A DNA stretch of 20,000 nucleotides. Source: Chiloscyllium plagiosum. Its lineage: Eukaryota. Below the pieces are notes generated by a model that had not been told where the DNA came from, searched no databases, and worked only from the letters and a program-made list of their open reading frames with translations. Where the stretch lies: the NCBI RefSeq assembly GCF_004010195.1, contig NC_057718.1:78802927-78822926 (forward strand). Reading direction: 5' to 3'. Of the stretch, positions 307-20,000 are shown in pieces. The translations under genes were made by a program, and so were the position numbers. Numbering within the stretch: position 1 is the first letter of the stretch; each line of letters starts with the position of its first letter.

Positions 307-611
307 TAGTTAGGGGAGATTAAATACTGAGAACATAATGGCAAAGAGCATGTTAATGTAATACAAAAGAAATAAAAACACATGCCTACCTTAGGTGTTA
401 ATAGCACAATAAAGGTCAGCCCTTTGTGCAAACAAAAACATGAAAACTAGAAACAGACTAAGGCTTGGAGAAAAGAGTCTCAAAATGGTAAATAGATTTC
501 TGGTAATAATTACACAGAGAAATGAGCAAAGCAGAAAACAGTTTAGTGAAGGGTTAATATGAGGTCCAATAATATGAAGCTGATCGGTCTATGGAACCAT
601 GAAGATTTCAC

Positions 612-733
612 CTGGAGGTAGATGGCCACACTTTTGTACTTGGCAATATTCCCATCTTGTATTTGGATTGGTGGTGTAACACCAGGGTTCCTTTTCATTT
701 TCTGGGTTCCTGCAGTAATTACCTTCTAGTCCT
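612..733 (-). CDS. PLG: Plasminogen internal exon, C-terminal half of kringle 3 (equivalent to human exon 9)
   Basis: ttttttaag|A GGA CTA...CCT CCA G|gtgaaa; 122 nt, phase 2 in and phase 1 out. Translation (K)[40 protein letters not shown]. The C-x4-C end is as in plasminogen K3, whereas HGF/MST1 K3 have C-x5-C. The donor position is less certain than the others. Confidence 0.9.
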
Positions 734-992
734 CTTAAAAAAAAACACAGCAATTTTGTTAATCATCAGAAAGAAATATTATACTGTTTTCAGTATGCAA
801 CTGGTTTCATCTCATGATTAGCATATACAAAGGAATGGAGAGTCTAAGTCTTTTTGAAATTGCCATGGCCCCATAACTTGGAAAAAATCAACAATCTTAC
901 TGCATGGCCCATGCAAGTAGTTTGAGTCTATCCCTGTCAAATGGGATAATGGTGAAAAGTACATTAAACAAGGGCTACTAACATTTACTTAC

Positions 993-1155
993 TTGCAGGG
1001 GTAGTTCTCTGGCGTTCTTGAATGCATGTGTGGAAACTGAGCATCCCATCTTTGACAAATTTTACCAGACATAGTGGTCGATATGGCTCCACGATACTTT
1101 TGACCTGTGCCTGTGTAGCACTCTGTCTCCACTTCAATATCAGGAGGCTCTGCAC
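993..1155 (-). CDS. PLG: Plasminogen internal exon, K2-K3 linker and N-terminal half of kringle 3 (equivalent to human exon 8)
   Basis: ttgaag|GT GCA GAG...CCC TGC AA|gtaagt; 163 nt, phase 1 in and phase 2 out. Translation (S)AEPPDIEVETECYTGTGQKYRGAISTTMSGKICQRWDAQFPHMHSRTPENYPC(K). The ending RTPENYPCK matches plasminogen K3 (human RTPENFPCK). Not present in the ORF track. Confidence 0.93.
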
Positions 1156-1603
1156 CTTCAACAGATACAGGACAATTATAGTATTTATCCTAAAGGGTTT
1201 CTGCAGTTGTGTTAGTGTTTGTGCAACATGGTGGTACCATGGATTAACTTGTTTCCAGTTTTCTGAAGTAAAGCACAGTGGGAACAGAACAGAACTGAGT
1301 CATACTGGGCTACAACCTTTAAAACTTTGTTCAAGCATTCATTTAAACATGCACTGATCTTATATTTTTTACTGGAGCACCAAAACTTAATTTAGATTAT
1401 TATAAATGAAAAGTGTTGGATTTAAGGATAGTGCAATGTTACAGAACATTGCAGAATACTGCAGTGCTGTCATGGGTATGGCTGTTATCATCCCACTCTC
1501 AGATATAGCATCAGGAAAGTTCTGGTGCTGTTCTACATCATCTACTGTTGATAATCATTATCTAAGGAAGAGATGTATATGGACAGTTAACTGAATTGAT
1601 GAA

Positions 1604-1946
1604 GGGTGGCACGGTAGTTCAGTGGTTAATACTACAGCCTCAGAGTGCTTGGGACCTGGGTTCAATTCCAGCCTTGGGTGACTTTCTATGTGGAGTTTGC
1701 ATGTTATCCCTGTATCTGTGTGGGTTCCTTGTGGGTGTTCCAGTTTCCTCCCACAGTCCAAAGATGTGCAAGTTAGGTGGATTGGCCTTGCTAAATTGTT
1801 CTGTAGTGTGCAGATTAGGTGGGTTAGCCATGGTAAATCCAGGCTCATGGAGATGCATTGGGGGAAGCCAGGCCAGAATGAAATTCTTTGCAGACTCGCT
1901 GGACTGAATGGCCCCTCTTTCCATACTGTTGGAATTCTATGATTCA
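1604..1946 (+). mobile_element. V-SINE (HE1-like tRNA-derived SINE), near full length
   Basis: tRNA-like head GGTGGCACGGTAGTTCAGTGG with B box GGTTCAATTCC; V-domain GTGGAGTTTGCATG...TTTCCTCCCACAGTCCAAAGATGTGC; CR1-like ATTCTATG tail. Confidence 0.88.
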
Positions 1947-2159
1947 TATACCCTTGGCCACACCCATTTGCATCCTATCAAGACTTATATAATAGCCAGA
2001 GATCCTCCATAAAGTTTTAAGATCCCTCAGCTGCCATAATATCATTGGTTAGAACAGGGTCTTAAGTGAAAGGGATCAGAGACAGCAGAGCACAAAAAAC
2101 AGTCTTCCGGACAAGTCTGCAAAAGATCTACCCAAATGGTCTCACTAGCTTACTCTTTA

Positions 2160-2700
2160 CTTGTTACGGCTGTACAGGACATTGTTGAGGCCACTCGTGA
2201 AATATTACGTACAATTCTACAGGAAGGATGTTGTTAAATTTGAAAGGGTGCAGTAAAATTTACAAGGATGTTGCCAGGACTGAAGGGTTTCAACTATAGG
2301 GAGAGGCTGAATAGGCTGGGGCTTTTCTCCTTGGTGTGTCGGAGGCTGAAGGGTGACCTTATAGAGGTTTATAAAATCATGAGGGGCATTGAAGGATGAA
2401 TAGCCAAGGTCTTTTCCTGAGCATGGGGAGTCCAAAACTAGAGGGCGTAAGTTTAAGGTGAGAGAAGAAAGATTTAAAAACGATCTGAATAGTAACTTTC
2501 TCATGCAGTGGATGGTATGTGTGTGAAATGAGCTGCCATCGGAACTGATGGAGGCTGGTATAGTGAAAACATTTAAAAGTCATCTTGATGGGTATATGAA
2601 TAGCAAAAGTTTAGAGGGATATAGATCCAATGCTGGCAAATGGGCCCAGATAGGCAGATCTGGTCATTGTGGACGAGTTAGACTTAAGGGTCCCTGTTAT
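2160..2700 (+). mobile_element. CR1-clade LINE 3' fragment (end of ORF2 plus 3' UTR), degenerate
   Basis: Remnant coding for RRLKGDLIEVYKIMRG; homologous to the copies at 2830-3570, 10290-10925 and 14175-15715. Confidence 0.85.
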
Positions 2701-2706
2701 ATATGT

Positions 2707-2802
2707 TTGACAAAGGGTCAGTTTGACTTGAAATGTCAGCTCTTTTCTCTCCTTACAGATGCTGCCAGACCTGCTGAGATTTTCCAGCATTTTCTCTTTT
2801 GG
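2707..2802 (+). mobile_element. Penelope-like element terminal-repeat fragment with degenerate hammerhead motif
   Basis: TTGACAA-AGGGTCA-GTT-TGACTT-GAAATGTC followed by CAGATGCTGCCAGACCTGCTGAGATTTTCCAGCA, similar to the other PLE tails in the window. Confidence 0.6.
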
Positions 2803-2829
2803 CTGTTATATAACTCTCTGACTCAATAG

Positions 2830-3570
2830 AGTTATAGAGTCAGAGAGATATGCAACACAGAAACAGATCATTTGGTCCAACTTGTTCAAGCCAAGCAGAA
2901 ATCCTAAGTTAATCAAGTCCCATTTGCCAACATTTAGCCCATGTCCTTCTAAACCCTTCCCATTCATGTACCTATCCAGATGCCGTTTAAATGCTATAAT
3001 TGTACCAGCCTCCACCATTTCCTCTCGCAGCTCATTTCTTACACGCACCACCCTCTGTGTGAAAACGTTGCCCCTTAATGTCCCTTTTAAATCTTTCCTC
3101 TCTCACCCTAAATCTGTGCCCTCTAGTTTTAGACTCCACCACCCCAGGGAAAAGACCTTGTCTATTTAACCTACTTATGCCCTTCATGATTTTATAAACC
3201 TCTATAAGGTCACTCCTCAGCCTCTGACTCTCCAGGAAAAATGGTCCTGGACTATTTAGCCTCTCCCTATAGCTCAAATCCTGTCAATATCCTTGTAAGA
3301 TTTTTTCTGAATCCTTTCAAGTTTCACAAAATTCTTCCTGTCACAAGGAGACCAGAATTGCGTGTAATATTCCAATAGTGGCCTAACCAATGTACAGCTG
3401 TAAAATGACCTCTCAACTCCTATACTCAATGCAGAGACCAATAAAGTCAAGTATACCAAATACCTTTTTCCCTATCCTATCCACCTGTGACTCCACTTTC
3501 AAGGAACTATGAACCTGCGCACCAAGATCGCTTTGTTCAGCAACACTCCCCAGGACCTTACCATTAAGAT
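2830..3570 (-). mobile_element. CR1-clade LINE 3' fragment
   Basis: ORF-track peptides RLRSDLIEVYKIMKG, LVRPLLEYYTQFWSP and LGAQVHSSLKVESQVDR are CR1 ORF2 C-terminus; TCTATGAC-type tail. Confidence 0.9.
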
Positions 3571-4029
3571 AAGCCCTGTAAGTATCCCTGTAAATACTTT
3601 CCTTCAAATGTTTATCCAATGACGTTTCAATATTCATTAAATATGTTTCTGCCACTTTGTTAGGCAAATCACAACAATTTAACCACGTGTCTTCCATGGA
3701 AACAATTTCTCCTTATTTACTGCTTCAAAATCTTGCATTATTCTGAAATTTTCAAAATTCCCAGCATCTCTTTTCTCTCTGCATAACTGGTGCTCTTCGT
3801 CCCTGCTACTAGTTTAATGAATCTCAGCCCTAGACAACTGATGCTAAAGTGTGGTCCAGGATTGGTCATAATACACCAGCTGATGCTTAATCGGTGAACT
3901 GGTAAACTTCTGCACTTTAATTTTTGCCTCTGTTTCTAAAAAGAACGTTGCATTAAGTTTTGCATTTTATTATTGGTAATTTCATACAGTAGTATAACTA
4001 ATAGAAGAATGCCGCAGCACTTCAATTCT

Positions 4030-4560
4030 ATCATATGCACACTGTGTGTTATGTGGAATGCCGGTCCACCTCATGTACAGACATTGTCATCAAATGGAGA
4101 AGTGTGAGCTCCCAGTTTCAGAGCTGGAACTACAACTGGCCTCACTAGAATGTGACCACAAAGCTGAGAGCTTGGTAGATTGCAGGTTTCTGGAGGTGGT
4201 CACCCTGTGGATTAGGAGTGTAGAAGCAGAGAAGGTATAGGTGACCAAGTCAACAAGGAAGAGCAGGCCAATAGCATACGTTCCCCCTCAGTGCTTCTCT
4301 TTATCTAATTGGTGTTCAGTTCTGACTACTGGTGTGAATGATAGCTCCTTAAGGTGATACAACCAGAAATAAGTCCACAATAACGTAGGTGGATTGCCTA
4401 CGTGGTTGAAGATCAGGAATCAAACAATAATAGAGGATTCTGTAGCAAGGTGAGTCAATGCCAGGGGAAGGATGGTCATTCTGTGGCTGCAGACATAATT
4501 CTTAGATGGTTTGTTGCCACCCTTGCATAAAGTCCAGGATGTCACTGAGTGGCTGAGGAA
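4030..4560 (+). mobile_element. Degenerate CR1 ORF1 remnant (coiled coil plus SGNH-esterase-like)
   Basis: ELPVSELELQLASLE coiled-coil-like stretch. DNA remnants resembling IGDSIVR (ATAGAGGATTCTGTAGCAAGG) and CxPGARVQDVTE (GTCCAGGATGTCACTGAG). Recognised from memory of CR1 ORF1. Confidence 0.5.
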
Positions 4561-4577
4561 GATAATGGTGTAGTAGT

Positions 4578-5027
4578 CTGATGAAGGGCTTTTGCCCAAA
4601 ACGTCGATTTTCTGGCTCTTCAGATGCTGCCTGACCTGCTGTGCTTTTCCAGCACCACTCTAATCTAGACTCTGATTTCCAGCATCTGCAGTCCTCACTT
4701 TTGCCTCGTTGACTTTAACCTTACTGCGAATCATCTTGCAAGGATGCCTACCTTGAAGAAGTTCTCCTCCTCTCTTTACAAGAATCTCTCTCTCACTGCA
4801 ACCCCCAGGTCATCTCCTCTGCCCTGAAGCTACCTTCTCCCCAGCCCCACCCCTCTCCCGTTTATCTCTCCACCCCAGAGGCTCCCTGCCTTCATTCTGA
4901 TGAAGGGCTTTTGTCCGAAATGTCGATTTTCCTGCTCCTCAGATGCTGCTTGATCTGCTGAGCTTTTCCAGCACCACTCTTATCTAGACTCTGATTTCCA
5001 GCATCTGCAGTCCTCACTTTTGCCTTT
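4578..5027 (+). mobile_element. Non-autonomous mini-PLE with two direct 129-bp terminal repeats, each starting with a hammerhead motif
   Basis: Direct repeats 4578-4706 and 4897-5025 (period 319). Flanking near-duplication GTGTAGTAGT (4568-4577) / GTGTAGTGGT (5028-5037). Confidence 0.85.
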
Positions 5028-5272
5028 GTGTAGTGGTCATGGACTAGTAAACTAGAAGCCAGGACTAATGCTTTGTGGATATTGGTGCAAATTCTACCTT
5101 TGCACTACATAAACTCAATTTGTAAAATTTGGACTCAGTAATGTTGACCATGATATTAGCACAAATTTCTCATAAAACTCTATTTAGTTCTTGAAGATCC
5201 TTCAGCAAAGAAAATCTTTACCTAGGTCTGGCCAAAATGTGACTCTAGACCAAGAGCAATATAGTTGACTGT
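5028..5272 (+). mobile_element. Old tRNA-derived SINE, body; head starts near 4566 and tail continues at about 6375-6460
   Basis: GTGTAGTGG head, degenerate B box near 5083-5097, body CCTAGGTCTGGCC...TGTGACTCTAGACC...GTTGACT. An L2-like tail resumes after the Rex1 insertion. Confidence 0.5.
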
Positions 5273-5284
5273 TTTGTTTTGATT

Positions 5285-6335
5285 TGATTTGCGTTATTAT
5301 TGTTGCATGTATCGACATACAGTGGAAAGTATTGTATTGCGTGTTCAACAGACAAATCTTATCGTACATAAATATATTAGAGTAATAGAACAGAATACAG
5401 CATATAGTGTTACAGTTACAGAGAAGATGCAGAGAAATACTAACTCTAATGTATGTATCATAAGTCTGATTACGGAGGGGCAGAAGCTGTTCTAAAATCT
5501 ATTGGTACGTGTTTTCAAACTTTGTATCTTCTGCCTGATGGAAGAGGGTGGAAGAGAGTATAATCAGGGTGGGAGGGGTCTTTGATGATGTTAGCTGCTT
5601 TCGTGAGGCAATGGGATGTTTAGACAGTGTCAATGGAAGGAAGGCTGGTTGTTGTGATGGACTGGGCTGCATTCACAACTTACCATAATTTCTGGCTGCC
5701 TTGGGCAAAGCAGTTGCTGTACCAAGTGGTGATGCATCAGTATAGAATGCTTTCTATGGCGCATCTATAAAAATTGGTAAAAGTAATTGCAGACATGCCA
5801 ACTTTCCTTAGCATTCTGAGGAAGTAAAGGCATTGATATGATTTCTTGACTGTAACGTGGATGGACCAGGATAGATTGTTGGTGATATTTACTCCTAGCA
5901 ACTTGAAGCTTTCGATCACCACCACCTCAGCACCATTGATACAGACAAAGGTATGTCCTCCACTCTGCTTCGTAAAGTCGATGACCAGCTCTTTTGTATT
6001 TTTACTAACATTGAGAGAGAGTGATTGTTGTCTTAACCATGCTACTGAGCTGTCTATTTCTTTTTTGTACTCTATCTTGTCACTGTTTGAGATCTGACCC
6101 GTTACAATGGAGTCATCAGCAAATTTGCAAATGGAGTTAGAGCTGAATTTGGCCACATAGACATGAGTGTACAAGTACCAGTGCTGAGGATTATTGTGAA
6201 GGAAGTTGTCATCTATCCTTACTGACTGCAGTCTGCAGGTCAGGAAATCGAGGATTCATTTACAGAGGGGAAACTAGAGTCCTAGGTCTCGGAGTCTGGA
6301 GATACGTTTTGTTGGAGTTATGGTGTTGAAAGCAG
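5285..6335 (-). mobile_element. Rex1/Babar-type non-LTR retrotransposon 3' fragment
   Basis: ORF 5737-6174 KFADDSIVTGQISNSD...SLNVSKNTKELVIDF...LYFLRMLRKVGM...TNFYRCAIESIL is an RT C-terminus of Rex1/Babar type. Confidence 0.8.
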
Positions 6336-7597
6336 ATTTAGTTTCTTATTTAGTTAGTTAGTCTCTTATTTAGTTTCTGAAGTGGTCTAGTAATTCACTC
6401 AGATAAATGGTAGTTAGAGCTAGGCAAATAACACCCACATTACATCAAAGAATGCAAAAAGATGCATCACATTCTGGTGGGAGATTCTGAAAGCCAGAGA
6501 TCATGGTCTATCTCAATATTAATGACCCAGATAGAAAGAAAGAAAATAGAGTCACTCAAAGATAGTTTTGCAGTGCAAAATTGTAAATTCATACAGTAGA
6601 GTATATAGTTTAGTGAATTGTAGATAATCATGTGATAATGGAGAGATGACTAATAATACAGGGAAAGATTGGATTATAAATACTCCTGGATACAAAATGT
6701 TCAGGTAAAAAAGGGGTTGTAGTGTGAAAAAAAGTCAGGAACACTGAATGAAGAGAACTTCTCAGTGTTGGGGAATGAAGAGGAACAATACTGTTGAGCA
6801 TGTTGCACAATTGGTAAAATAGCCAGTTGGCAGCTCACTGAGTTTAAACGTTTATCAGTTGGAGTGGCCCTTATTAAGTTGGCAGTGGAACCTTGCAACA
6901 ATTAAGAACTGGAATTCTGGTCCTCAGGAGCTGCCTGTCAATCTGACTGACTGACCATTGAGTAGTTCCAATGGCACCAAAACACAATGGTGGCCACTGT
7001 TGGAACTACAAGGAGTTCTGAGAAGGCAGAATTTAGACGCGGGCAGGGGGGGCTGGTCAAAGACGAATCAGATGCACTAGTAATAAGAGTGATAAAGGAC
7101 AAAAGGACAAAGGGGGTGGAGGGGATGAGTTACCATCTTGGGCAGTTGCCCTCAGTGATACTGGGACACACCAAAGGAGGTACCCTCTTCAATCTCAGCT
7201 TTTGTCTTATATGTGAAGCCTGTTAGGCTGACTTCTATCATTTTATCATACCCTGCTGCACACAATATTGTTGTGGTGGCAGATGAGTCCCTTAACTGGC
7301 CATTGATTGGCCAATGAAAGGCCTCAATAAGCTAAAGGGTAAATGGGCTATCTAATGCCTTATCCGCATAGCTTATTTTGATGAATAGCTCAACGGCTGG
7401 CAGGAAAGAATTGAATTGGACATAGAACATCGAACATTACAGTGCAGCACCTGCCCTTTGACTCTTGATGTTGCGCCACCCTGTGGAACCAATTTGAAGC
7501 ACATCTAACCTACACCATTCCATTCTCATCCATATTCTGGATTAGTGGTGCTGGAAGAGCACAGCAATTCAGGCAGCATCCGAGGACAGGCAAAATC

Positions 7598-7625
7598 GAC
7601 GTTTCGGGCAAAAGCCCCTCATCAG
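7598..7625 (-). ncRNA. Minimal type I hammerhead ribozyme motif (PLE-type), intact core
   Basis: Minus strand CUGAUGA-G-GGGC-UUUU-GCCC-GAAAC-GUC, with palindromic ACGU stem III. Confidence 0.8.
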
Positions 7626-8058
7626 GAATAAAGGCAGAGAGCCTGAAGCATGGAGAGATAAGCTAGAGGAGGGTGGGGGTGGGGAGAGAGTAGCATAGAG
7701 TACAATAGGTAGGTGGGGAAGGAGATGAAGGTGATAGGTGAGGTTTCACGGGATGTTCCCTGAAGTGAGAGGTCTCAGCAAAAAGTTAACTTTTGTTTGG
7801 GGTCTGTGGAGCAGAAGAGGCTAAGGGGGCAATTGATGCAGACATAATGGTGAGTGATATAGACTGGGCCGATTGTGATAAATACTTCCGCGATGTAGGC
7901 ATGTCTTAGACCAATTGAATTAAGGTTAAAGTGAAAAATGAAGCATTTCGCGAGGATCTGATGGAAAAGCAAATTACCCAGGGGATGGGTCAAATATGGA
8001 ACATGTTGCCTGAGAGGGTAGCTTATCTCTCCATGCTTCAGGCTCTCTGCCTTTATTC

Positions 8059-8086
8059 CTGATGAAGGGCTTTTGCCCGAAACGTC
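8059..8086 (+). ncRNA. Minimal type I hammerhead ribozyme motif (PLE-type), intact core
   Basis: CUGAUGA-A-GGGC-UUUU-GCCC-GAAAC-GUC. Confidence 0.8.
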
Positions 8087-9934
8087 GATTTTGCCTGTCC
8101 TCGGATGCTGCCTGAATTGCTGTGCTCTTCCAGCACCACTAATCCAGAATCTGGTTTCCAGCATCTGCAGTCATTGTTTTTACCTCATTCTCATCCATAT
8201 GCCTATCCAATGATCATTTAAATGCTCTTAAAGTTGGCGAGTCTACAACTGTTGCAGGCAGCGCATTCCATATTTCTACTATTCTCTGAGTAAAGGAACT
8301 ACCTCTGACATCTGTCCTATGTCTGTCACCGCTCTGTTTAAAGCTATGTCCCCTCAAAGACAGCACCATCAGAGGAAAAAGGTTCTTATTGTCCACCCAA
8401 TCCAACCCTCTGATTATCTGATATGTCTCAATTAAGTCACCTCTCAATCTTCTTCTCTCTAATGAAAACAGCCTCAAGTCTCTCAACCTTCCCTCATAAG
8501 ATCTTCCCTTTACATCCTAGTAAATCTCCTCTCAATCCTCTACAAAGCTTCCATATCCTTCCTATAATGCAGTGACCAGAACTGCACGCAATACTCCAAG
8601 TGTGGCTGCACCAGAATTTTATACAGGTGCAGTATGACCTCATGGATCCAAAACTCAATCCCTCTGCTAATAAAAGCTAACACACCATATGCCTTCTTAA
8701 CAGCCCTATCAACCTGGGTGGCAACTTTGAGGGATCTATGTACATGGACACCAAGATCTCTCTGTACATCTACATTATAAAGAATCGTACAAGTACTCTG
8801 CATTCCTGTTACTCCTTCCAAAGTGAATCACCTCACACTTTTCTGCATTAAACTCCATTCGCCAACTCTCAGCCCAGCTCTGTAACATGCAACATCCTTC
8901 AGCACTATCCACAACCCCACCAACCTTGATGTCATTCACAAATTTACTAACCCATCCTTCCACGCCCTCATCAAGGTCGTTTATAAAAATGACAAACAGC
9001 AGTGGACCCAAAACAGGTCCTTTCGGTGTACCACTAGTAACTAAACACCAGGATGAACATTTCCCATCAACCACCACCCTCTGTCTTCTTTCAGCTAACC
9101 AATCTCTGATCCAAGCCACTAAATCACCCTCAATCCCATGCCTCCGTATTTTGTGCAACAACCTACCATGGGGAACCTTATCAAACACTTTACTGAAATC
9201 CATATACACCACGTCAACCGCTTTACCCTCATCCACCTGTTGGGTCACCTTCTCAAAGAACTGAATAAGGTTTGTGAGGTACGACCTATCCTTCACAAAA
9301 CTGTGTTGACAATCTCTAATCAACTTATTCCTATCAAGATGATTATAAATCCCATCTCTTGTTTATTTCACATTCTCCTCTCCACCTCCAAATATTCGGA
9401 TGGCATCTGTAAAAGGCACCCTTGTTTCTGTCAATGATGAATGAGGTACTGAAGGATTAGGCTCTGGGAAATGAAATGGATCAAGCAGAGTTAGGGGAAA
9501 AGGTAAGAACACTGATATTGTACTATAATGTTTAGGTCATCTGCAGGAAAGAACAAGGGGCCATGTTGACCAAAATCGGTTAACTGCAGGATGGCCAGTT
9601 TCAGCAGAGAGGAATAAGAATATTGCAGAGTTAAATTGGAATTACAAATTACTTAGTTGCACTTTTGCCTGTCAATGAACAACTTTTAAAGATAGTGTAG
9701 ATTATAAAGTGGTTGTAAAATTATTTTGTTAAGAGCGTGCTCAGGTTAAGAATCTGGTAAATGTGGGAATTCTCTGCAGAGTGGTAAAAGTAAATTTTAA
9801 ATGTTTTTTCCTAGAGCTAATGTATAGTTTTCATTTATCTATAAGCTAGGAAACTAGCCTGTTATTGCTTTACTTAAATTACTAAATTAATAACTTAAAC
9901 TAGATAAATTAATCAATTAATAAAACTAAAATAA

Positions 9935-10042
9935 AGGGTCTGGGTAGTGCTGTGGTAGTTTCCCTACTTCTGGACCCAGAGTCCGAGTTCAAGTCCCACA
10001 GGCTCCAGAGGTCTGTAATAACATTGCTGGTTTGAAAACATT
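9935..10042 (+). mobile_element. Short tRNA-derived SINE with 14-bp TSD
   Basis: TSD TAAAACTAAAATAA at 9921-9934 and 10043-10056. A-box-like TAGTGCTGTGG and B box GAGTTCAAGTCCC. Confidence 0.7.
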
Positions 10043-10289
10043 TAAAACTAAAATAATCAATTCAACTAAAATTAATTAACTAATTAAATAAATGAGTACA
10101 TTTTGATTGAAATGGTAAGGCAGATAGGGCGATGTAATCTGAAAGATTGTGGGAAGCATTGTGATACCTTACAACCATATCTGTGCTACGTCTGTAGCTA
10201 AGACCCGTGGTTCAGATGATTGGTGAGGGGTAGAGGGAAAATGAATAGGTTAGGGTTGCAGTAGGTAGTCATTTTGACGCTTTTAGAAG

Positions 10290-10925
10290 GCTTTAGGTAT
10301 GCTTGCCTTTATTGGTTAGTGCATTGAGTTGGGAGGTCATGTTTGGCTGTACAGGACATTGGTTAAGTCACTTTTGGAATACTGCATACAGTTCTGGTCT
10401 CCCAGGTTTAGGAAGGATGTAGTGAAACTTGAAAAGGTTCAGAAAAGTTTTACAAGGATGTTGGCAGGGTTAGGGCATTTGAGCTATTTGGAGACGCTGA
10501 ATCAGCTGGGGCTATTTTCCCTGGAACATTGGAGGCTGAGGAGTGACTTTATAGAGGTTTATAAAATCATGAGGGGCATGGATAGGCTGAATAGCTAAAG
10601 TCTATTCCCTGGAGTGGGAGAGTCCAAAACTAGAGGGCATAGGTTTAAGGTGAGAGGGGTAAGATGTAAAAGGGACCTAAGGGGCAACTTTTTCACACAG
10701 AAGATGGTGCGTGTATGAAATGAGCTGCCAGAGGAAGTGGTTGAGGTTGGTAAAATTACAACATTTAAAAGTAATCTGGATGGGTATATGAATAGGAAGG
10801 GTTTATAAAGATATGGGCCAAATGCTGGAAAATGGAACTACATTAATTTAAGAGATCTGGTCAGCATGGACATGTTGGACCAAATGTCTCTGTGATGTAA
10901 AGCTCTACGACTCTCTGACTCTTTG
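10290..10925 (+). mobile_element. CR1-clade LINE 3' fragment
   Basis: ORF 10329-10598 LYRTLVKSLLEYCIQFWSP...RLRSDFIEVYKIMRG; tail CTACGACTCTCTGACTC. Confidence 0.9.
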
Positions 10926-11062
10926 TTCCAGGATGGAGTCATGGGGTTAAACAAAGCTTAATGTTCAGTCAGCAGTCAAAAACAGGAAGGTGTGAGTCAG
11001 AGTCAGGCAATTAAAGGTTCCTACATGTGATTATATTGTGTCCAGGCTGATACAAAGTGCAG

Positions 11063-11251
11063 GGAGAAAGTGAGGACTGCAGATACTGGAGATCAGAGTC
11101 AAAAGGTGTGGTGCTGAAAAAGTACAGCAGTCAGATCGCATCCAAGGAGCAGGAGAGTCAATGATTCGAGCATAAGGTCCACATCAGGAATTCTCCTGCT
11201 TCTCGGATGCTGCCTGACTGGCTTGTTTTTCCAGCACCACATTTTTTGACT
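11063..11251. mobile_element. Short fold-back PLE terminal-repeat insertion with 16-bp TSD
   Basis: TSD CTGATACAAAGTGCAG at 11047-11062 and 11252-11267. Imperfect inverted arms at about 11096-11156 and 11192-11252. Degenerate minus-strand hammerhead at about 11160-11187. Confidence 0.8.
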
Positions 11252-11616
11252 CTGATACAAAGTGCAGTAGTGACAAAGTTTTGCACTGTGAGATGTGCTA
11301 TTTATTTTAGAAGTAATGATAAATTTCACTGCTCTGTTAATTTTCAATCACCACCAGCAAGACAGACTAACTGAACATACACCTCACTACGGCCTTTTAC
11401 CATCTTGCTGCATGCAAAATATCTGATAACTAAGAGTGCAGTTCGGGGCCATTGCAATGCTTTGGGAAATTGTAGGACAAGAAAGGCAAGATAGAATGGC
11501 TCTTTCCTTCATTCTTTACCTTAATTTCTAACTTTCTCATATGTAATTTTCCCTAACTGTGTAACAAATAATAGGGTGCCGGAGCAAAAACAGTGTGTAA
11601 CACAACTTGGACAAAC

Positions 11617-12225
11617 TGTGACGATGCTGTTCCTTTAACAAGCTTGTGTTTGTCTTTGGTTTTTATTCAGAAGTGTTGTACGAGGCAGAGTTGATCTGGC
11701 TTGATCTACTTGAAGAAGCTTTTAAGTTTAAAAAGACATTTGTACAATGGAAGTTCTCTCAGCTCAGCTTTTCTCTGGTTTGGTTTGGTTGGGTTTTAGC
11801 AGTCTGGCCGTTCAGAGCAAGCAGTCAGTCAGTCAGTTTTGAGGCAGTTGGTCAAAGAAAGAGCTACATAGGAGAAGGTGTTCTCTGCTGAATCTTTCTG
11901 CCATCTCTTGCTCTCATGTTTGGTTTTTCCTTTTCTACCAAGGGATGTTTATGGGATTGTTGCAAGTATTTGGAACAACATCACTCAGTTGCGATAGATT
12001 TGATGGAGTTTTTAACTAGTTAAGCTATTCTATATTCTGTTCGCTTTTGTATGTGTTTCATTTGGTAATCTTGCAAATAAAATCTGTTTTGTTTAAAGCT
12101 AAGTGGTTGGGCCAGCTGCATCACTCCTGGAATATCCACCATACACCTGCTTAAAACAACTAGAAACATTAGGGTCTGGGCTACTTTCTTAAATGTTTTG
12201 AGGGGGTCTAGCCTGGACCATAACT
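11617..12225 (+). mobile_element. Probable solo LTR (degenerate)
   Basis: Begins TGTGACG and ends CCATAAC(T), an imperfect TG..CA inverted terminus. AATAAA near 12076 followed by GT-rich sequence. No TSD seen. Confidence 0.45.
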
Positions 12226-12684
12226 GGGAAATTCCATGGAAAATTCCTTTTATGTATTAATTTCCCACATTTTATCCTCAGTAGTGAAAAGATAATACCC
12301 ATTGTTGACTTCAAAGTTTTACTAATCATTTCATTTCTCCTAATGTTAATCTGAACCAACTTTATGTTAAGGAAATCTTGAGGCACTGAGCTACAGTGAT
12401 AGCATCAAATAGGATAAGCAGAAATTTTCACAACAGAATTCAGAAATTTTCATTGGCTTGATTTGATTGCTCATGCATCACACCAAAAAAAGTGTATCAG
12501 ACATTTAATTATCATTTCTTTTGGGACATTAAATCAGTAGTAACAAAAAATAATTTAATGGAATTGAACAACAGGTGGTTTCTGAAGAAACAGTAGAGGA
12601 ATCATTGGTTTTGACATTTATTAGAGCATGGTTTCAGAATGGAGGTGAGGAGGGCAGCGTACCCATTTTGAACTATTGTGAACT

Positions 12685-12795
12685 AAAGTACTACCATAGA
12701 ATCTTTAATGTTCACCTGAGGGGGCCCAAAGTTCAATATCTCATTTGACAACAACATCTTCAACAATCTAGCACTTTGTTCAGTATTTCAGTAAA
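12685..12795 (-). mobile_element. Ancient DeuSINE-like (AmnSINE/SacSINE-type) remnant
   Basis: GAATCTTTAATGTTCACCTGAG...AATATCTCATTTGA...AGCACTTTGTTCAGTA resembles the reverse complement of the Deu-domain consensus as I recall it; highly diverged. Confidence 0.4.
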
Positions 12796-12943
12796 TATGG
12801 AACAGTACAAGTCAATAGAAGGAAACTTGCACCTATTAAACTGGTTCAGATCAAATTACCATGTCCTAAAAGTAAAATAACAGTATGCTAATTCACCTTG
12901 AAGCCAAATCCTCAAGAACCCACGAAGAAAATGAAAAACTTAC

Positions 12944-13062
12944 TACAACGTGGAACATTGCAGAATGCCCATCGCTTTTGGGTATCAGTTGTAAAACACC
13001 ATGGCCTGGGTTCTCCATCAGGATTACGACAGTAGTTCTCCTCGAAATATTTATCTGGAAAA
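12944..13062 (-). CDS. PLG: Plasminogen internal exon, C-terminal half of kringle 2 (equivalent to human exon 7)
   Basis: Minus strand ttcag|T TTT CCA...CGT TGT A|gtaagt; 119 nt, phase 2 in and phase 1 out. Translation [39 protein letters not shown] carries the kringle NYCRNPD..PWC..RW..C..C signature and resembles plasminogen K2. Confidence 0.93.
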
Positions 13063-13974
13063 CTGAAGGTCCTTACTTTTATTTCCAGTGAGAAAACCTT
13101 GCTAGTGAATAGCAATGTGTCTATGAGGCTTGCACTATGCGTTCAGGAAAATGCTGTTTACAGAAATGTATTAATTTTAAATATTGCTCACAATAACTAC
13201 AGCTTGGACTTTATACAGGCCTTTTACACAAAATATCCCAAAGTGTCCGTCAGACGATTATCAGAAAATAATTGATGCCGAGTCACAAGGATAGGCAGTA
13301 TTAGGACATGTGAGCAAATGCCTGGTCAAACTGTTAGCTTACAGAGTGTCTTAAGGGAGGTCAGACAGGAAAAAGCTAAAAATCTGAATAACTAAAGGTG
13401 TGATTGTTCAGGAAATATTAGTCTCGTTTGTGCAGGAGCCAGAAATGGTTGAGAGTTGTAAGGCTGGAAGAGATAATGTAGAAACAGAAATGGAGATATT
13501 TAAATACATGAATAAGAATTTTAAAGTAGTAGGCATGCAACCATATTGACAATGGTAGTGTAACATAATGTCCTGCATCATTTTATATACACATGACAGG
13601 CTAGTTAGCAATTGCAGCTATATTTTGAACAAAGTTCTCACACAATAATATTTCTAACCATTAAGAATTAATTAAACAAGTATTCCTGATTTCTAAGAAT
13701 GCAAATTGTGATGAGCTTTAACTCAGAAACAGTGCAGAGAGAAAAAAATAACAATTTCTTTAAAATCTCCAGGGAATCTCAAATTGTTTGTCATAACATT
13801 TTTAAAAAGACCTCTAGGAATTTGGATCAATTCTAAAGGGTTGCATTATATTTTTCTTATTATAATAAAAAAGTCTGCTCCAGCCATGACCAAGAAGCAA
13901 TATCCACAGAAGGAAGATAAGAGCAGATTTCCTGTGGCTGGCAAGCACAAGGTAGAGGTGTAAGCAGGAGGGGA

Positions 13975-14172
13975 TCATCACACAGGAATGAGCTGCGAGA
14001 GCAAGTGGTAGATGTGGATACAAATGTTACAGTTAAATAGGTACATTTGGATAGGTACATGGATAAGAAAGGTTTGGAGGGATCTGGGCCAAACACAGGT
14101 ATACAGGATTAGTTCAGTATAGGAAACCTGGTCAGCATGGATGTGTTGGGCTGAACGGCCAGTTTCCATACT
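13975..14172 (+). mobile_element. CR1 3' tail fragment
   Basis: GGAATGAGCTGC...CATTTGGATAGGTACATGGAT...GGTCAGCATGGA; homologous to other CR1 tails in the window. Confidence 0.8.
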
Positions 14173-14174
14173 TT

Positions 14175-15715
14175 AAGACTCACAAACTTGATTGAGTTTT
14201 TTGAAGAAGTAGCAAAGAGGATTAATGAGGGCAGAGCAATGGACATGATCTACATGGAGGAGAAAGTGAGGTCTGCAGATGCTGGAGATCAAAGTTGAAA
14301 CTTTATTGCTGGAACAGCACTGAACAGCCAGTTTCCATACTTTAAGACTCACAAACTTGATTGAGGTTTTTGAAGAAGTAGCAAAGAGGATTAATGAGGG
14401 CAGAGCAATGGACATGATCTACATGGACTTCAGTATAGCACTCAACAAGATTCCTCATGGTAGACTGGTTAGCAAAGTTGGATCACACAGAATACATGGA
14501 ATATATCCTTGGTGCTGGGGTCTGTTTGGAGGTGGCGGAAGTGATCTACATGGACTTCAGTATAGCACTCAACAAGATTCCTCATGGTAGACTGGTTAGC
14601 AAAGTTGGATCACACAGAATACATGGAGATCTAGCTATTTGGATACAGAAGTTAGGCTTTAGGGCGGTGGTGGAGGGTTGCTTTTTAGACTGGAGGCCTG
14701 TGACCAGCAGTATGCCACAAGGATCGGTGCTGGGTCCACTGCGTTTCATCATTTATATAAATGATTTGGATGTGAGCATAGGAGATATGGTTAGTAAGTT
14801 TGCAGATGACACCAAAATTGGAGGCCTATAAGACAGCAAAGAAGGTTACCTCAGAGTACAGTGGGATCTTGATCAGATGGACCAATGGGCCTAGAAGCGG
14901 CAGATGGCGTTTAATTTAGATAAATATGAGGTGCTGCATTTTGGAAAAGCAGCTTAGGGCAGGGCTTATACACTTAATGGTAAGGTCCTGGGGAGTGTTG
15001 CTGAACAAAAAGATCTTGGAGTGCAGGTTCACAGTTCTTTGAAAGTGGAGTCACAGGTAGATAGGATAGTGAAGAAGGCATTTGGTATGCTTGCCTTTAT
15101 TGGTCAGTGCATTGAGTTCAGGAATTGGGAAGTAATGTTGCAACCGTACTGGTTAGGCCACTTCTGGAATATTGTGTTCAATTCTGGTCTCCCTGATATA
15201 GGAAGGATGTTGTGAAAATTGAAAGGGTTCAGATAAAACTTACAAGTAGGTTGTCAGGGTTGGATGGTTTGACCTACAGGGAGAGGCAGAATAGGTTGGG
15301 GCTGTTTTCCCCAGAGACTGAGGGGTGACCTTATAGAGATTTATAAAATCATGACGGGCATGGATAGGATAAATAGACAAGGTCTTTTTCCTGGGGTTGG
15401 GGAGTCCAGAACTAGATAGCATAGGTTTAGGGTGAGAGGAGAAAGATTTAAAAGGCTCCTAAGGGGCAACTTTTTCACACAGATGGTTGTGCGTACATGG
15501 AATGAGCTGCCAGAGGAAGTGGTGGAGGTGGTACAGTTACAACATTTAAAAGGCATCTGGATGGGTATATGAATAGAAAGGGTTTAATGGGATATGGGCC
15601 AAATACTGGCAAATAGGTTTAGATTTATTTAGGATATCTGGTCGGCATGAACGAGTTGGACCAAAGGGTCTGTTTCTGTGCTGTATATCTCTGTGACTCT
15701 CAGACTCTATGACTA
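14175..15715 (+). mobile_element. CR1-clade LINE 3' portion (RT to tail) with internal duplications
   Basis: IYMDFSIALNKIPHGRL...PQGSVLGPLRFIIYINDLD...SKFADDTKIGG; tail TGACTCTCAGACTCTATGACT. Confidence 0.92.
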
Positions 15716-15944
15716 CACAGATGCAGATACAAAAAGGTGTTGTAGCAGGACAGAGTAAGCAACTGAATCCTAATAGGTGTGAATTCCTTAGACATGCCAA
15801 AGAACTGAGTGTTCGAATCAGAGGATCAGATTGCATATTGAGAATGGTTATTTGTTTTTTTGAAAATCAATTCTGAAAGCTATACTATCAGGTCCGATGT
15901 GACCTTAGTGAAAGTAGGTTCATAGATGTGAGCCTTGCTGGTGA

Positions 15945-16230
15945 TATCTGGAGGCATGGCAGTCAACCTGGAACTCCATTAACAAACATGTGGAGTTAGA
16001 CCCCATATACCAACCACGAAGAAACAAAACTGGAAATAATACTACCTACCTCAGCAAACCAGGACACATAAATAGCAAACGGGATAGAACACCAATGCTT
16101 CACCAGAGGTGCACTGACGATATTACCTAGTATGGTGACAAAATGACTGCAAACAAATTTATCAGCTCAGCAACCAAGTCAACAATCTCATCCACAACCT
16201 GAGCTACAAATCTTCTCAAGAACTTTGACT
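15945..16230 (+). mobile_element. Degenerate Penelope 3' fragment, same family as 17121-18410
   Basis: Aligns to the reverse complement of about 17121-17400 (GACCCCATATAC, GCACTGACGA...ACCTAG, GAGCTACAAATCTTCTCA..AACTTTGA). Degenerate hammerhead at 16111-16150. Confidence 0.75.
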
Positions 16231-17197
16231 ATTAAAAGATAAATTTACATTTCCATCTGAATTATCATTTACATGGTATTGCAAATGTAATTAAAGTAAA
16301 TCTGCAAAAGTGAAATATTGTTTGAAGGTCATTGAGTAAATTTAGTTGTTTTGGTTTACGGTTCCTGCATTGGGATTGCAACAAAATATTATCATTAATT
16401 CACTTCTTTATCTAATTTACAATCTTAAAATGGAAATATGATGAGGACTGTTTAAAAGTAGACTAAAGTAAATTAGATTAATGTAATTGTTGGGAATGGA
16501 GTTGGTTTGAGTTGAGTCAGTGAACAGTCAAGGATAGCACTCCCACCATCCCCTCAATAAGCTCACCCTCAAAATTTCCTGTGGTCCCATTTTGAGTTGT
16601 AATTGATACAAGCAATCTAGGATCAATCTGCATCTCTCATTCCTGCTGTTGTCCCATATCCGTCCCATTGCTGCAAAAGTCCTTCCATTACATTTCTTCC
16701 TGATCCCTCTGCTGCAGTAGTCCAGCTCCACCACAGATGCTGTCAAAATCGTCTCTCAAACATTCCTCATCTTCACTCTTTGCTTGCGTCCAGCACAACT
16801 CTGGCAAATCCCTTGCTAAGAAACATTTTTTTTTTACAAAACAGAATGTGGACTTCACTTAAAGTCAATATTTGTTGTCCATTCCTCATTATTCCCTTGA
16901 ACTGCTAGGCCACTTTGGAAGCCAGTTAAAAGTTATTTTGTGTATAAGATCATGCTTACAGATGAGGTAAAAAAAAGCAACCTTCTGTCTCTAAAGGGGA
17001 ATTTGTGAACTAGCTGCCTATTTTAAAATGGGTCACTGACAGTTTCATAGTCCCCTTGCTGAGCTTAGATTTATTAATTGAATTTAAATCTCATCAACTA
17101 GTATGGTAAGATTTGAACCTGTTCAAAGTTTGTGAGAAGATTTGTAGCTCGGGTGCTCGTTGCTGTGGTTCTGTTCGCCGAGCTGGAAGTTTTTGTT

Positions 17198-17237
17198 GCA
17201 AACGTTTCGTCCCCTGCCTAGGTGACATCCTCAGTGC
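17198..17237 (-). ncRNA. Minimal type I hammerhead ribozyme motif in the Penelope terminal repeat, intact core
   Basis: GCA-CUGAGGA-U-GUC-A-CCU-AGGC-AGG-G-GAC-GAAAC-GUU-UGC. Stem I GCA/UGC, stem II GUC/GAC plus CCU/AGG, palindromic AACGUU stem III. Confidence 0.82.
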
Positions 17238-17547
17238 TTGGGAACCTCCTGTGAAGCACTTCTGTCGTGTTTCCTCCGGCATTTATAGTGGTCTGTCCCT
17301 GCCGCTTCCGGTTGTCAGTTTCAGCTGTCCGCTGTAGTGGCCGGTATATTGGGTCCAGGTCGATGTGTTTGTTGATGGAGTTTGTGGATGAGTGCCATGC
17401 TTCTAGGAATTCCCTGGCTGTTCTTTGTTTGGCTTGCCCTATAATGGTAGTGTTGTCCCAGTCAAATTCATGTTGCTTCTCGTCTGTGTGTGTGGCTACT
17501 AAGGATAGCTGGTCGTGGCGTTTAGTGGCTAGTTGATGTTCATGGAT

Positions 17548-17897
17548 NNNNNNNNNNNNNNNNNNNNNNNNNNNNNNNNNNNNNNNNNNNNNNNNNNNNN
17601 NNNNNNNNNNNNNNNNNNNNNNNNNNNNNNNNNNNNNNNNNNNNNNNNNNNNNNNNNNNNNNNNNNNNNNNNNNNNNNNNNNNNNNNNNNNNNNNNNNNN
17701 NNNNNNNNNNNNNNNNNNNNNNNNNNNNNNNNNNNNNNNNNNNNNNNNNNNNNNNNNNNNNNNNNNNNNNNNNNNNNNNNNNNNNNNNNNNNNNNNNNNN
17801 NNNNNNNNNNNNNNNNNNNNNNNNNNNNNNNNNNNNNNNNNNNNNNNNNNNNNNNNNNNNNNNNNNNNNNNNNNNNNNNNNNNNNNNNNNNNNNNNN
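17548..17897. other. Assembly gap (350 N)
   Basis: Run of N inside the Penelope element. Confidence 1.
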
Positions 17898-18491
17898 TGT
17901 GGCGTTGATGATCTGGTGTGTTTTTTCTATTTCCGTGTTTTTAATGATTACAAACGTGTCATCGACATATCTGCCCCAGAGTTTGGGTTGAATTTGTGGT
18001 AAGAGTGTTTGTTCTAACCTTTGCATTACTGCTTCTGCTATGAGTCCCGAGATTGGTGATCCCATGGGTGTTCCGTTGATTTGTTCGTATATCTGGTTGT
18101 TGAATGTGAAGTGTGTTGTGAGGCACAAGTCCAGTAGTTTAAGTATGCCGTCTTTGTTGATGGGTTCAACGTCCTGTTGTCTGTTATGTCTGTTCAGCAG
18201 GTTGGCTATTGTTTCTCTGGCTAGGGCTTTGTCAATAGATGTGAACAGTGCCGTTACGTCGAATGAGACCATGGTTTCTTCCTTGTCTATGTGTATATTT
18301 CTGATGGTTCAAGAATTCTTGTGTTGATTGTATAGAGTGTCTGGATCCGCTGATCAGGTGTTTCAGTTTCTGCTGTAGTTCTTTAGCCAGTTTGTGTGAT
18401 GGTGTCCCTGTTTTTTGAATTGACTAAGGGCACAGTGAGCAGGCAGTACTTATTATTTTTGAAAAAGCAATTAAAAGACTTAGTTTTGGGT

Positions 18492-19345
18492 TGTTATGAC
18501 AGCTTCATATTTGAAATTGTTATGAGGACCTGAGTTTTGAAGGATTGTGGGAAATCTGTTTTATTTCAGGTTCTATGAATACCTGAAGTTTTTAAGATCA
18601 CCTTAGACATTAGAGCCTTTTTTAACAAGGCAGATCTTAGCAACAACATGGTTTCAGCTAATTTCTGGACTTGTTTGCTTGAAGTCCCTTCGTGGGTTTT
18701 ATGACTATGACAAAGTTAGATCATGTTCAAACAAAGCTTTTGATGCTGTGCGAATTGACATCTAGCCTGCTGAAGGACAGAAGCTTCCAAGCTCAACATC
18801 TCTTACTTCTGAGAGAAGCTCTAATTGTGCATCCAATGTGATACCTGGAACATTGATCAAGGAGCTTTCAGGAAAAAAAAACATTGCAGGGAGTTTGTTC
18901 CAATATTTTGTGAACAACTACATATTCATAGATCCCAGGGACAACTTTACACATCTTGTACCCTGTCCACATGTGCAGAATGCCAGACTGAGAGCTACCT
19001 GAACATTCTACTCCTTCACCTTTTGCCGTGAGAACTATCAATTATTGGCCAACTATTAAATGAATCTCAGCAGAGAAATTTTCTTATGTGGATTTAGTTA
19101 TTTATACTTCTTTTATTTCAAATTTTCAAATGATACTTCTTTGCCAAATAAGTCGTGGTTACACAGTCAATCAATAATCTTGTTGTTTCTGAAAGATACC
19201 CTGGTTGATGGATTGTTGTAAAATTCTAACCATAATATTGATAAAATGTATAATTAGCACTATCAATATCTGGGTAAACATTTGTTGTGAATAATGAAGA
19301 CGTGGGACTAGAGGAAGGCAATGGACTCCTGCCATCTTATTTCAA
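18492..19345 (+). mobile_element. Possible degenerate solo LTR
   Basis: TGTTATGA starts at 18492 and 18518, a polyA-signal-like region near 19173, and non-coding composition. Boundaries and TSD are not resolved. Confidence 0.3.
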
Positions 19346-19380
19346 AGCCTATTTATAAACTTGCAGGTCATAGAGTCATA

Positions 19381-19641
19381 TTAGATTACTTACAGATTAG
19401 ATTAGATTACTTACAGTGTGGAAACAGGCCCTTCAGCTCAACAAGTCCACACCGACCCTCCGAAGAGCAACCCACCCAGACCCCTACATTTACCCCTTCA
19501 CCAACACTACGGGCAATTTAGCATGGCCAATTCACCTAACCTGCACATCTTTGGATTGTGGGAGGAAACTGGAGCACCTGGAGGAAATCCACGCAGACAC
19601 GGGGAGAACGTGCAAACTCCACACAGACAGTTGCCTGAGGC
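19381..19641 (-). mobile_element. V-SINE, 5'-truncated, inserted in a CR1 tail (19367-19380 and 19650-19773)
   Basis: Reverse complement of the V-domain (GGAGAACGTGCAAACTCCACACAGAC, TGTGGGAGGAAACTGGAGCAC). (TAATC)n tail with duplicated ATTAGATTACTTACAG. Confidence 0.88.
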
Positions 19642-19773
19642 GATATTGTTATACAACACAGAAACAGATCCTTTGGTCCAACTTGTCCATGCTGACCAGA
19701 TATCCTAAATTGGTAGCCTCATTTGTCAGCATTTGGCCCATATCCTTCTAAATCCTTCCTAGTCATGTACCCA

Positions 19774-20000
19774 GGAGAAAGTGAGGACTGCAGAGGCTGG
19801 AGATCAGAGCTGAAAATGTGTTGCTGGAAAAGCGCAGCAGGTCAGGCAGCATCCAAGGAACAGGAGAATCGACGTTTCGGGCATAAGCCCTTCTTCAGGA
19901 ATGAGGAAAGTGTGTCCAGCAGGCTAAAATAAAAGGTAGGGAGGAGGGACTTGGGGGAGGGGCATTGGAAATGCGATAGGTGGAAGGAGGTCAAGGTGAG
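19774..20000 (-). mobile_element. PLE terminal repeat running off the window end
   Basis: GGAGAAAGTGAGGACTGCAGA...; homologous to 4897-5025, 8019-8185 and 11063-11190. Confidence 0.85.
19871..19898 (-). ncRNA. Minimal type I hammerhead ribozyme motif (PLE-type), intact core
   Basis: Minus strand CUGAAGA-A-GGGC-UUAU-GCCC-GAAAC-GUC. Confidence 0.8.

Follow-up and report, generated by a model that had tools for sequence, protein, structure and literature searches.

Minimal hammerhead ribozymes (min-HHRs) have been described in the pseudo-long terminal repeats (pLTRs) of metazoan Penelope-like elements (PLEs) as type I motifs with a palindrome at positions 15.2-16.2, no stable helix III, an extra base at 9.1 and a G10.1-C11.1 pair, which occur mostly as solo dispersed copies and also as opposite-strand pairs; PLE introns were reported near the motif, and a swap of the C3-G8 core pair to U3-A8 is already known from Schistosoma, with about 1,300 hits in Cercyon (PMC4209133). 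According to the same work, monomers of the minimal motif are inactive and dimers weak. These features recur among nine motifs in a 20,000-nt stretch of the genome of the bamboo shark Chiloscyllium plagiosum (contig NC_057718.1, C9:78802927-78822926, hereafter the window), which lie in introns of a plasminogen-family gene and are very probably minimal type I hammerheads carried passively in truncated relics of PLE end repeats, with the ribozyme likely selected in the parent elements and the intronic copies likely not cutting the host pre-mRNA.

Two further systems are close enough to be compared. The motif of PAc, a Poseidon element of Anolis, cleaves with the assistance of protein, the uncut RNA is the main template, with no reads ending at the cut, and its tail is explained by two reverse transcriptase (RT) start sites (PMC11167929). 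The shark copies resemble PAc in the Poseidon clade (family B below), in the two fixed 3′ ends and in the apparent use of uncut template, with the difference that PAc was tested biochemically and the shark motifs are known from sequence alone. Animal non-LTR retrozymes are likewise very abundant carriers of type I hammerheads (PMC7229834, bioRxiv 10.64898/2026.07.22.740005); they are derived from PLEs, with one chondrichthyan included (bioRxiv 10.64898/2026.07.22.740005), and reach up to 120,000 canonical hammerheads in the 28-Gb axolotl genome (PMC7229834). They differ in that their canonical motifs form head-to-tail arrays from which circular RNA is made, and also in the far larger genome of the axolotl, whereas close pairs in the shark are tandem in 16 of 107 cases and back-to-back in 73.

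The first-pass annotation of the window listed at least nine hammerhead motifs, four of them intact and five degenerate. All nine were confirmed in position and strand by a window scan and each was matched by a family profile, the profiles recovering in addition a partial arm at 11189. The pattern CTGANGA-N8..38-GAAAC has four matches in the window, namely 7601-7625(-), 8059-8083(+), 17204-17234(-) and 19874-19898(-), against a mean of 0.47 and a maximum of 3 in shuffled sequences, none of 200 shuffles reaching 4, and a descriptor including stem II adds site 4897, which gives five matches where 300 Markov shuffles average 0.15. The core CUGANGA ... GAAA ... UH is thus intact at four of the nine sites and present with wobbles at a fifth, and it is kept in the consensus of all five families distinguished here (A to E), with U3-A8 in family D. 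The label degenerate suits four of the five sites to which it was given: site 4578 has a G12A change, site 4897 keeps the core with a G-U pair in stem II and AUGU in place of ACGU, and sites 11160 and 16111 have several core changes each. For site 2707 it is only partly apt, as U3 and A8 are the family consensus, though this copy is otherwise damaged by CpG-type changes and has lost stem I. Both bases are present in 95 of the first 100 listed among 1,545 family-D copies, and by this comparison U3-A8 is a compensatory core variant and not decay.

Three PLE families are represented in the window, in line with the two or three proposed before, two of them probably Neptune-type (A and D) and one Poseidon-type (B), with clade names after PMC8557442. 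Family A (sites 4578, 4897, 7598, 8059, 11160 and 19871) lies downstream of a frame with a Cys linker and GIY-YIG endonuclease motifs, while in one long copy of family D (site 2707) a Neptune-like endonuclease end lies upstream, so that the Neptune features consist of linker and endonuclease motifs for A and of the endonuclease end only for D, no RT having been recovered for either. Family B (sites 16111 and 17198) is located at the 3′ end of a frame coding for RT and GIY-YIG without a Cys linker, and 23 of 28 RT loci, that of the window among them, have its motif downstream of the RT on the same strand (12 best matches, one of them the window, and 16 chosen for long frames). At one locus (L270) two family-B motifs 2,442 nt apart flank an RT frame as tandem end repeats. 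Family B fits the Penelope/Poseidon clade by its order of RT and GIY-YIG without the linker and by its tandem end repeats. Only the RT was matched in Pfam (RVT_1); GIY-YIG had no Pfam match and the endonuclease was recognised by motif alone. This context places the motifs in PLE end repeats and upholds the PLE origin suggested for them.

Families C and E were found outside the window. Family C (L161-L170) has 18,415 intact copies, an AGCU palindrome, a CUA triplet and a stem II of 5 bp, and at locus L167 the endonuclease end upstream is a different one. Family E (L191-L196) is an older relative of D with the C3-G8 core and 921 intact copies, its stem I being AGUU/AACU versus AGCU/AGCU in D. 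Families D and E share a pyrimidine tract ending in CAG 15-20 nt past the cut site (2738-2762 in the window), which resembles a splice acceptor.

The window copies are short for the most part. The family D stub, a Neptune-type PLE end (2691..2802, + strand), is 94% identical to a longer family-D copy and carries the U3-A8 hammerhead (2707-2737) antisense to the host gene. It is followed by a partial tandem of family A (4578..5031, + strand) in which an end repeat leads into about 140 nt of downstream element sequence and then into the 3′ end and a second end repeat, with hammerheads at 4578-4605 (G12A) and 4897-4924 (wobbles), 319 nt apart. Two family A copies, 7530..7743 on the minus strand with an intact-core hammerhead (7598-7625) sense to the host gene and 8019..8189 on the plus strand with a tail and an intact core at 8059-8086, are inverted twins with 136-nt arms and two differences; the 28-mer at 8059-8086 has 18,175 occurrences in the genome. 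An old family A fold-back (11068..11258, - strand) has a minus arm with a dead hammerhead (11160-11187) and a plus arm (11189-11258) starting just past the cut site. Family B is represented by an old stub with a dead hammerhead (16109..16228, + strand; motif 16111-16150) and by a 5′-truncated Poseidon-type PLE (17121..18410, - strand) comprising the RT (RVT_1, E=1.4e-9), a 350-N gap, the endonuclease end and an end repeat, which is 90-92% identical to a tandem element and whose end repeat contains an intact-core hammerhead (17198-17237) sense to the host gene. The last copy, from a second subfamily of A, has a tail and an intact-core hammerhead at 19871-19898, also sense to the host gene (19779..20000, - strand).

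From about one motif per 2 kb in the window a very large genome-wide load had been predicted, and the scan of the genome bears out the load itself: a generic pattern, in which the core and G10.1-C11.1 are fixed and the rest of stem II is free, has 163,942 matches versus 152 for the reversed control, or about 46 intact cores per Mb. Exact family patterns occur 94,213 times for A, 10,065 for B, 18,415 for C and 921 for E, each with 0 in the reversed control, and family D has at least 1,545 copies with CpG changes allowed, 10 of 20 fetched copies being fully intact. A sample of 960,989 called bases, drawn as 100 10-kb stretches of the 40 largest contigs, contains 48 strict motifs, with 0 in five shuffles, which extrapolates to about 178,000 genome-wide (131,000-235,000), and 242 motif-covering relics, i.e. 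one per 3,971 nt or about 0.9 million genome-wide, both extrapolations using the full assembly length, gaps included. The local density is a poorer guide, as the nine relics in 19,650 nt of the window (one per 2.2 kb) lie about twofold above the genome mean of one per 4.0 kb (P=0.065 under that mean) and the figure includes dead copies. The highest min-HHR counts given in PMC4209133 are about 9,000 in Xenopus and about 4,000 in coelacanth, whereas the search used here, a different one, finds about 164,000; the shark count is similar to the axolotl's in absolute number and higher in density, again with differing methods.

Stem II was stated to vary between families with the pairing and the core kept, and this agrees with an alignment of 16 hand-picked related copies of A, B, D and E, family C being omitted for misalignment. 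Paired cells make up 91.4%, and the covariation score is 0.519 versus 0.191 in shuffles (0/500 reaching it) and at most 0.165 when the pairing is slid. In stem II, which has the G10.1-C11.1 pair and the additional base at 9.1, 95.9% of the cells are paired and three of five pairs change on both sides, while the two inner pairs of stem I covary (C-G, A-U, U-A) and loop 2 and position 7 vary freely. The helix III palindrome is confirmed, being ACGU in A, B, D and E and AGCU in C. Stem I measures 2 contiguous bp in the main A subfamilies, against 3-6 bp in families B, D and E and in one subfamily of A. In comparison with the Schistosoma motifs, family A is shorter (stem I 2 bp, stem II 4 bp) and the U3-A8 family of the shark is of a vertebrate Neptune type (PMC4209133).

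The inserted copies are fossils which decay neutrally, because the conservation of the core holds between families and not among inserted copies. In 121 full-length copies out of 184 of family A, compared with their subfamily consensus, non-CpG differences amount to 64/1201 (5.3%) in the core versus 385/6104 (6.3%) in the flanks (p=0.21), the flank figure including some subfamily variation, and CpG positions, G12 included, differ in 21% of core and 22% of flank cases; 32 of the 121 copies are intact. The excess conservation of the core over its flanks that was expected is therefore seen at the level of families only, and the ribozyme was likely selected in active parent elements. The domesticated intronic hammerheads of amniotes (RECK-type, named in PMC6155905) are single-copy motifs conserved above their flanks, whereas the shark motifs are repeat-derived and decay neutrally.

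The arrangement of the copies and the points at which they begin bear on how they were inserted. Close pairs of the same family number 107, of which 73 are inverted back to back, 18 face each other and 16 are in tandem, which is a known PLE insertion pattern (PMC8557442); the window contains one of each main type (7530-8189, 11068-11258 and 4578-5031). Within the 10-kb stretches searched, none of 37 intact copies has a same-strand intact partner within 1 kb and two have one within 5 kb. A non-LTR retrozyme, with head-to-tail repeats of 150-450 nt each carrying a working hammerhead, was considered and rejected in view of these partner counts and of the sole tandem pair of the window, 4578/4897, which carries G12A; nor does the 4578-5031 unit look like a recurrent retrozyme, its junction not recurring among the loci compared. 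Starts at -10..0 of C3 were found for 93/210 family-A and 14/46 family-C copies, and 16/20 family-D loci start at stem I, which the search itself required. TATAAA is located at -35 in D, at -36/-40 in C and at -47/-53 in B, and family-A copies end at about +55-65 or about +100 past the cut site.

Starts at the cut number 3/210 in family A, and 2-3 of about 45 family-C copies start near it. In one single-cell sequencing run the read ends showed no pile-up at the cut, its reads coming from other copies. A cut-site footprint in family A is not supported, as exact-cut starts number 124 versus 136 at +3 and 107 at -2, and the excess is at most 1.6-fold (1.3-1.6 fold after hand correction for prefix frequency) and confounded by fold-backs, the first 30 cut-site starts being 11 with unique flank, 13 fold-backs and 6 indel copies. 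Our inference is that uncut RNA with its start just before the motif served as template for the stubs. The parent RNA would start about 5 nt before the hammerhead, and reverse transcription would begin at fixed sites 55-100 nt downstream, mostly on uncut RNA; such priming would yield both the 100-130 nt stubs and the back-to-back inverted pairs. For cleavage, two motifs would have to pair via the 4-nt palindrome, probably with an element protein as well, as on the transcript of a tandem element.

Copies that start at the edge of the motif and not at the cut could also be expected if catalysis had been lost and the motif persisted at the 5′ end of the element RNA as a structural signal or a binding site for protein, and the 2-bp stem I of the most successful subfamilies fits such a role, as do ribozyme mutants without effect on insertion in vitro (PMC11167929) and the Naiads, which thrive without a hammerhead (PMC8557442). 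We regard it as improbable, since the five families retain every catalytic position despite differences in loops and flanks, both sides of the 3-8 pair have changed in family D, and the Anolis motif does cleave in the presence of protein (PMC11167929).

The host gene was described as plasminogen, which holds for its family but not for its function. It spans about C9:78,756,000-78,875,200 on the minus strand and contains five kringles; its activation site reads Ser-Ile, the catalytic His is replaced by Gln and the catalytic Ser by Thr, the first PAN exon is out of frame and the second was not found. A complete plasminogen (C9:78,613,200-78,694,600(-), L201-L210) with PAN, five kringles, an Arg-Ile site and the full His/Asp/Ser triad lies about 60 kb downstream and is 70% identical to it. 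The nearest named protein to a host exon is from bamboo shark (96% identity), and in a 10-sequence tree the host gene groups (97/95) with this protein and with "plasminogen-like" proteins of two other shark orders, which are also without the catalytic Ser. It is a transcribed tandem paralogue of plasminogen, predicted to be non-catalytic, and resembles primate apolipoprotein(a). Three of its exons are in the window, all on the minus strand and with splice joints: the second half of kringle 2 (12944..13062, Kringle E=5.1e-14) and the first and second halves of kringle 3 (992..1155, E=1.3e-11; 611..733, E=1.4e-14). Non-catalytic PLG-2 copies are known in coelacanths and birds and are similar in being extra plasminogen copies with catalytic residues lost, the PAN domain being lost in coelacanth, whereas the shark copy keeps five kringles; no shark copy is named in the portion of that source consulted (PMC6337849).

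Six of the motifs lie in the 11.8-kb GT-AG intron 1156-12943 and three in the next intron upstream, those at 7598, 11160, 17198 and 19871 being sense to the host gene. The intron is skipped in contigs from 4/4 runs (three studies; their kind was guessed as RNA and one is labelled with this organism), and the relics across the gene are 16 sense and 21 antisense (p=0.51), with four intact on each strand. The intronic copies are most likely inert because they decay neutrally, show no strand bias, sit in an intron that is spliced, have no intact same-strand partner within 1 kb and, in the main A subfamilies, a stem I of 2 bp, and because published monomers are inactive and dimers weak or dependent on the element's protein. 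Three intact window copies are nevertheless sense to a transcribed gene, the genome holds about 164,000 intact cores and the ACGU palindrome is common to four of the five families, which would suit sense copies that cut nascent host pre-mRNA as trans-dimers or with a PLE protein and so affect the splicing or turnover of many shark genes. Against the decay, strand and splicing data, and with an intermolecular helix of 4 bp next to a stem I of 2-3 bp, we consider this very improbable. As for chance matches or a hammerhead look-alike repeat, the lack of a hammerhead model among 12 Rfam hits at E<=10 carries almost no weight beside 163,942 matches versus 152 reversed, four window cores versus 0.47 in shuffles, stem covariation and a position agreeing with published PLE end repeats, and this explanation is practically negligible.

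Several observations weigh against passive carriage of a ribozyme selected in its parents. Pairs changed on both sides are 7/12, which is not above shuffles (68/500), and the alignment of hand-picked related sequences is a weak point of the case for stem selection. The commonest family-A subfamilies have a 2-bp stem I and the hammerhead is not their minimum-energy fold, so that by folding they may be poor ribozymes even in the parent elements; cofolding of two monomers gave no dimer fold, nested folding being unable to represent the dimer. Family B has no 5′ pile-up, with 0/32 copies starting in the 10 nt that precede C3, a TATA-like word (TTTATC at -35/-37) is all that family A offers, and Drosophila Penelope is reported to be TATA-less (PMC2377424). 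The strand test (n=37) is of low power, and the spliced contigs are compatible with partial cutting.

Other repeats in the window include remnants of long interspersed nuclear elements (LINEs) at 8778-9362(-), 14439-14828(+), 2236-3568 and 10285-10884, the first two with RVT_1 matches, which we take to be CR1/L2-type. At 14151-14427 and 14410-14627 there are near-identical direct duplications in a LINE remnant, of 108 nt around a PLE tail fragment (14258-14318) and of 91 nt, which could be insertion-linked or an assembly artefact. A repeat resembling a short interspersed nuclear element is present in two copies in opposite orientation (1671-1798 and 19514-19641) and may be akin to the shark HE1 SINE.

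No paper describing shark PLE hammerheads was found in the literature searched, though they may be listed in Lunse et al. 2017 or in file 1 of PMC4209133, and no shark is named in the text of PMC4209133 consulted or in its supplementary files that were searched. Since the literature already contains the motif class, the U3-A8 swap and the inverted structures, the novelty lies in the host and the large number and not in a new system. The present analysis contributes controlled counts, the neutral decay of the copies, a U3-A8 family from a vertebrate, a negative result for the cut-site footprint and the identification of the host gene.

Taken as a map of the element transcript, the shark stubs might place the hammerhead right at the start of an RNA driven by a TATA promoter, with the ribozyme deciding whether the RNA is translated or circularised or serves as template for insertion; we offer this tentatively, as a possibility that is rather doubtful at present. 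If true, cutting the 5′ hammerhead would strip the cap from a leader of about 33 nt, the start sites of reverse transcription would be lost on cleavage of the downstream copy, and the five shark families with their C3-G8/U3-A8 and ACGU/AGCU variants would be the richest natural series for testing the role of the PLE hammerhead. The locus shows that a vertebrate tolerates intact motifs on the sense strand of a transcribed intron. With its roughly 164,000 intact cores spread over five or more families, its compensatory variants and its start-point statistics, this genome makes the role of the hammerhead in PLEs easier to test.

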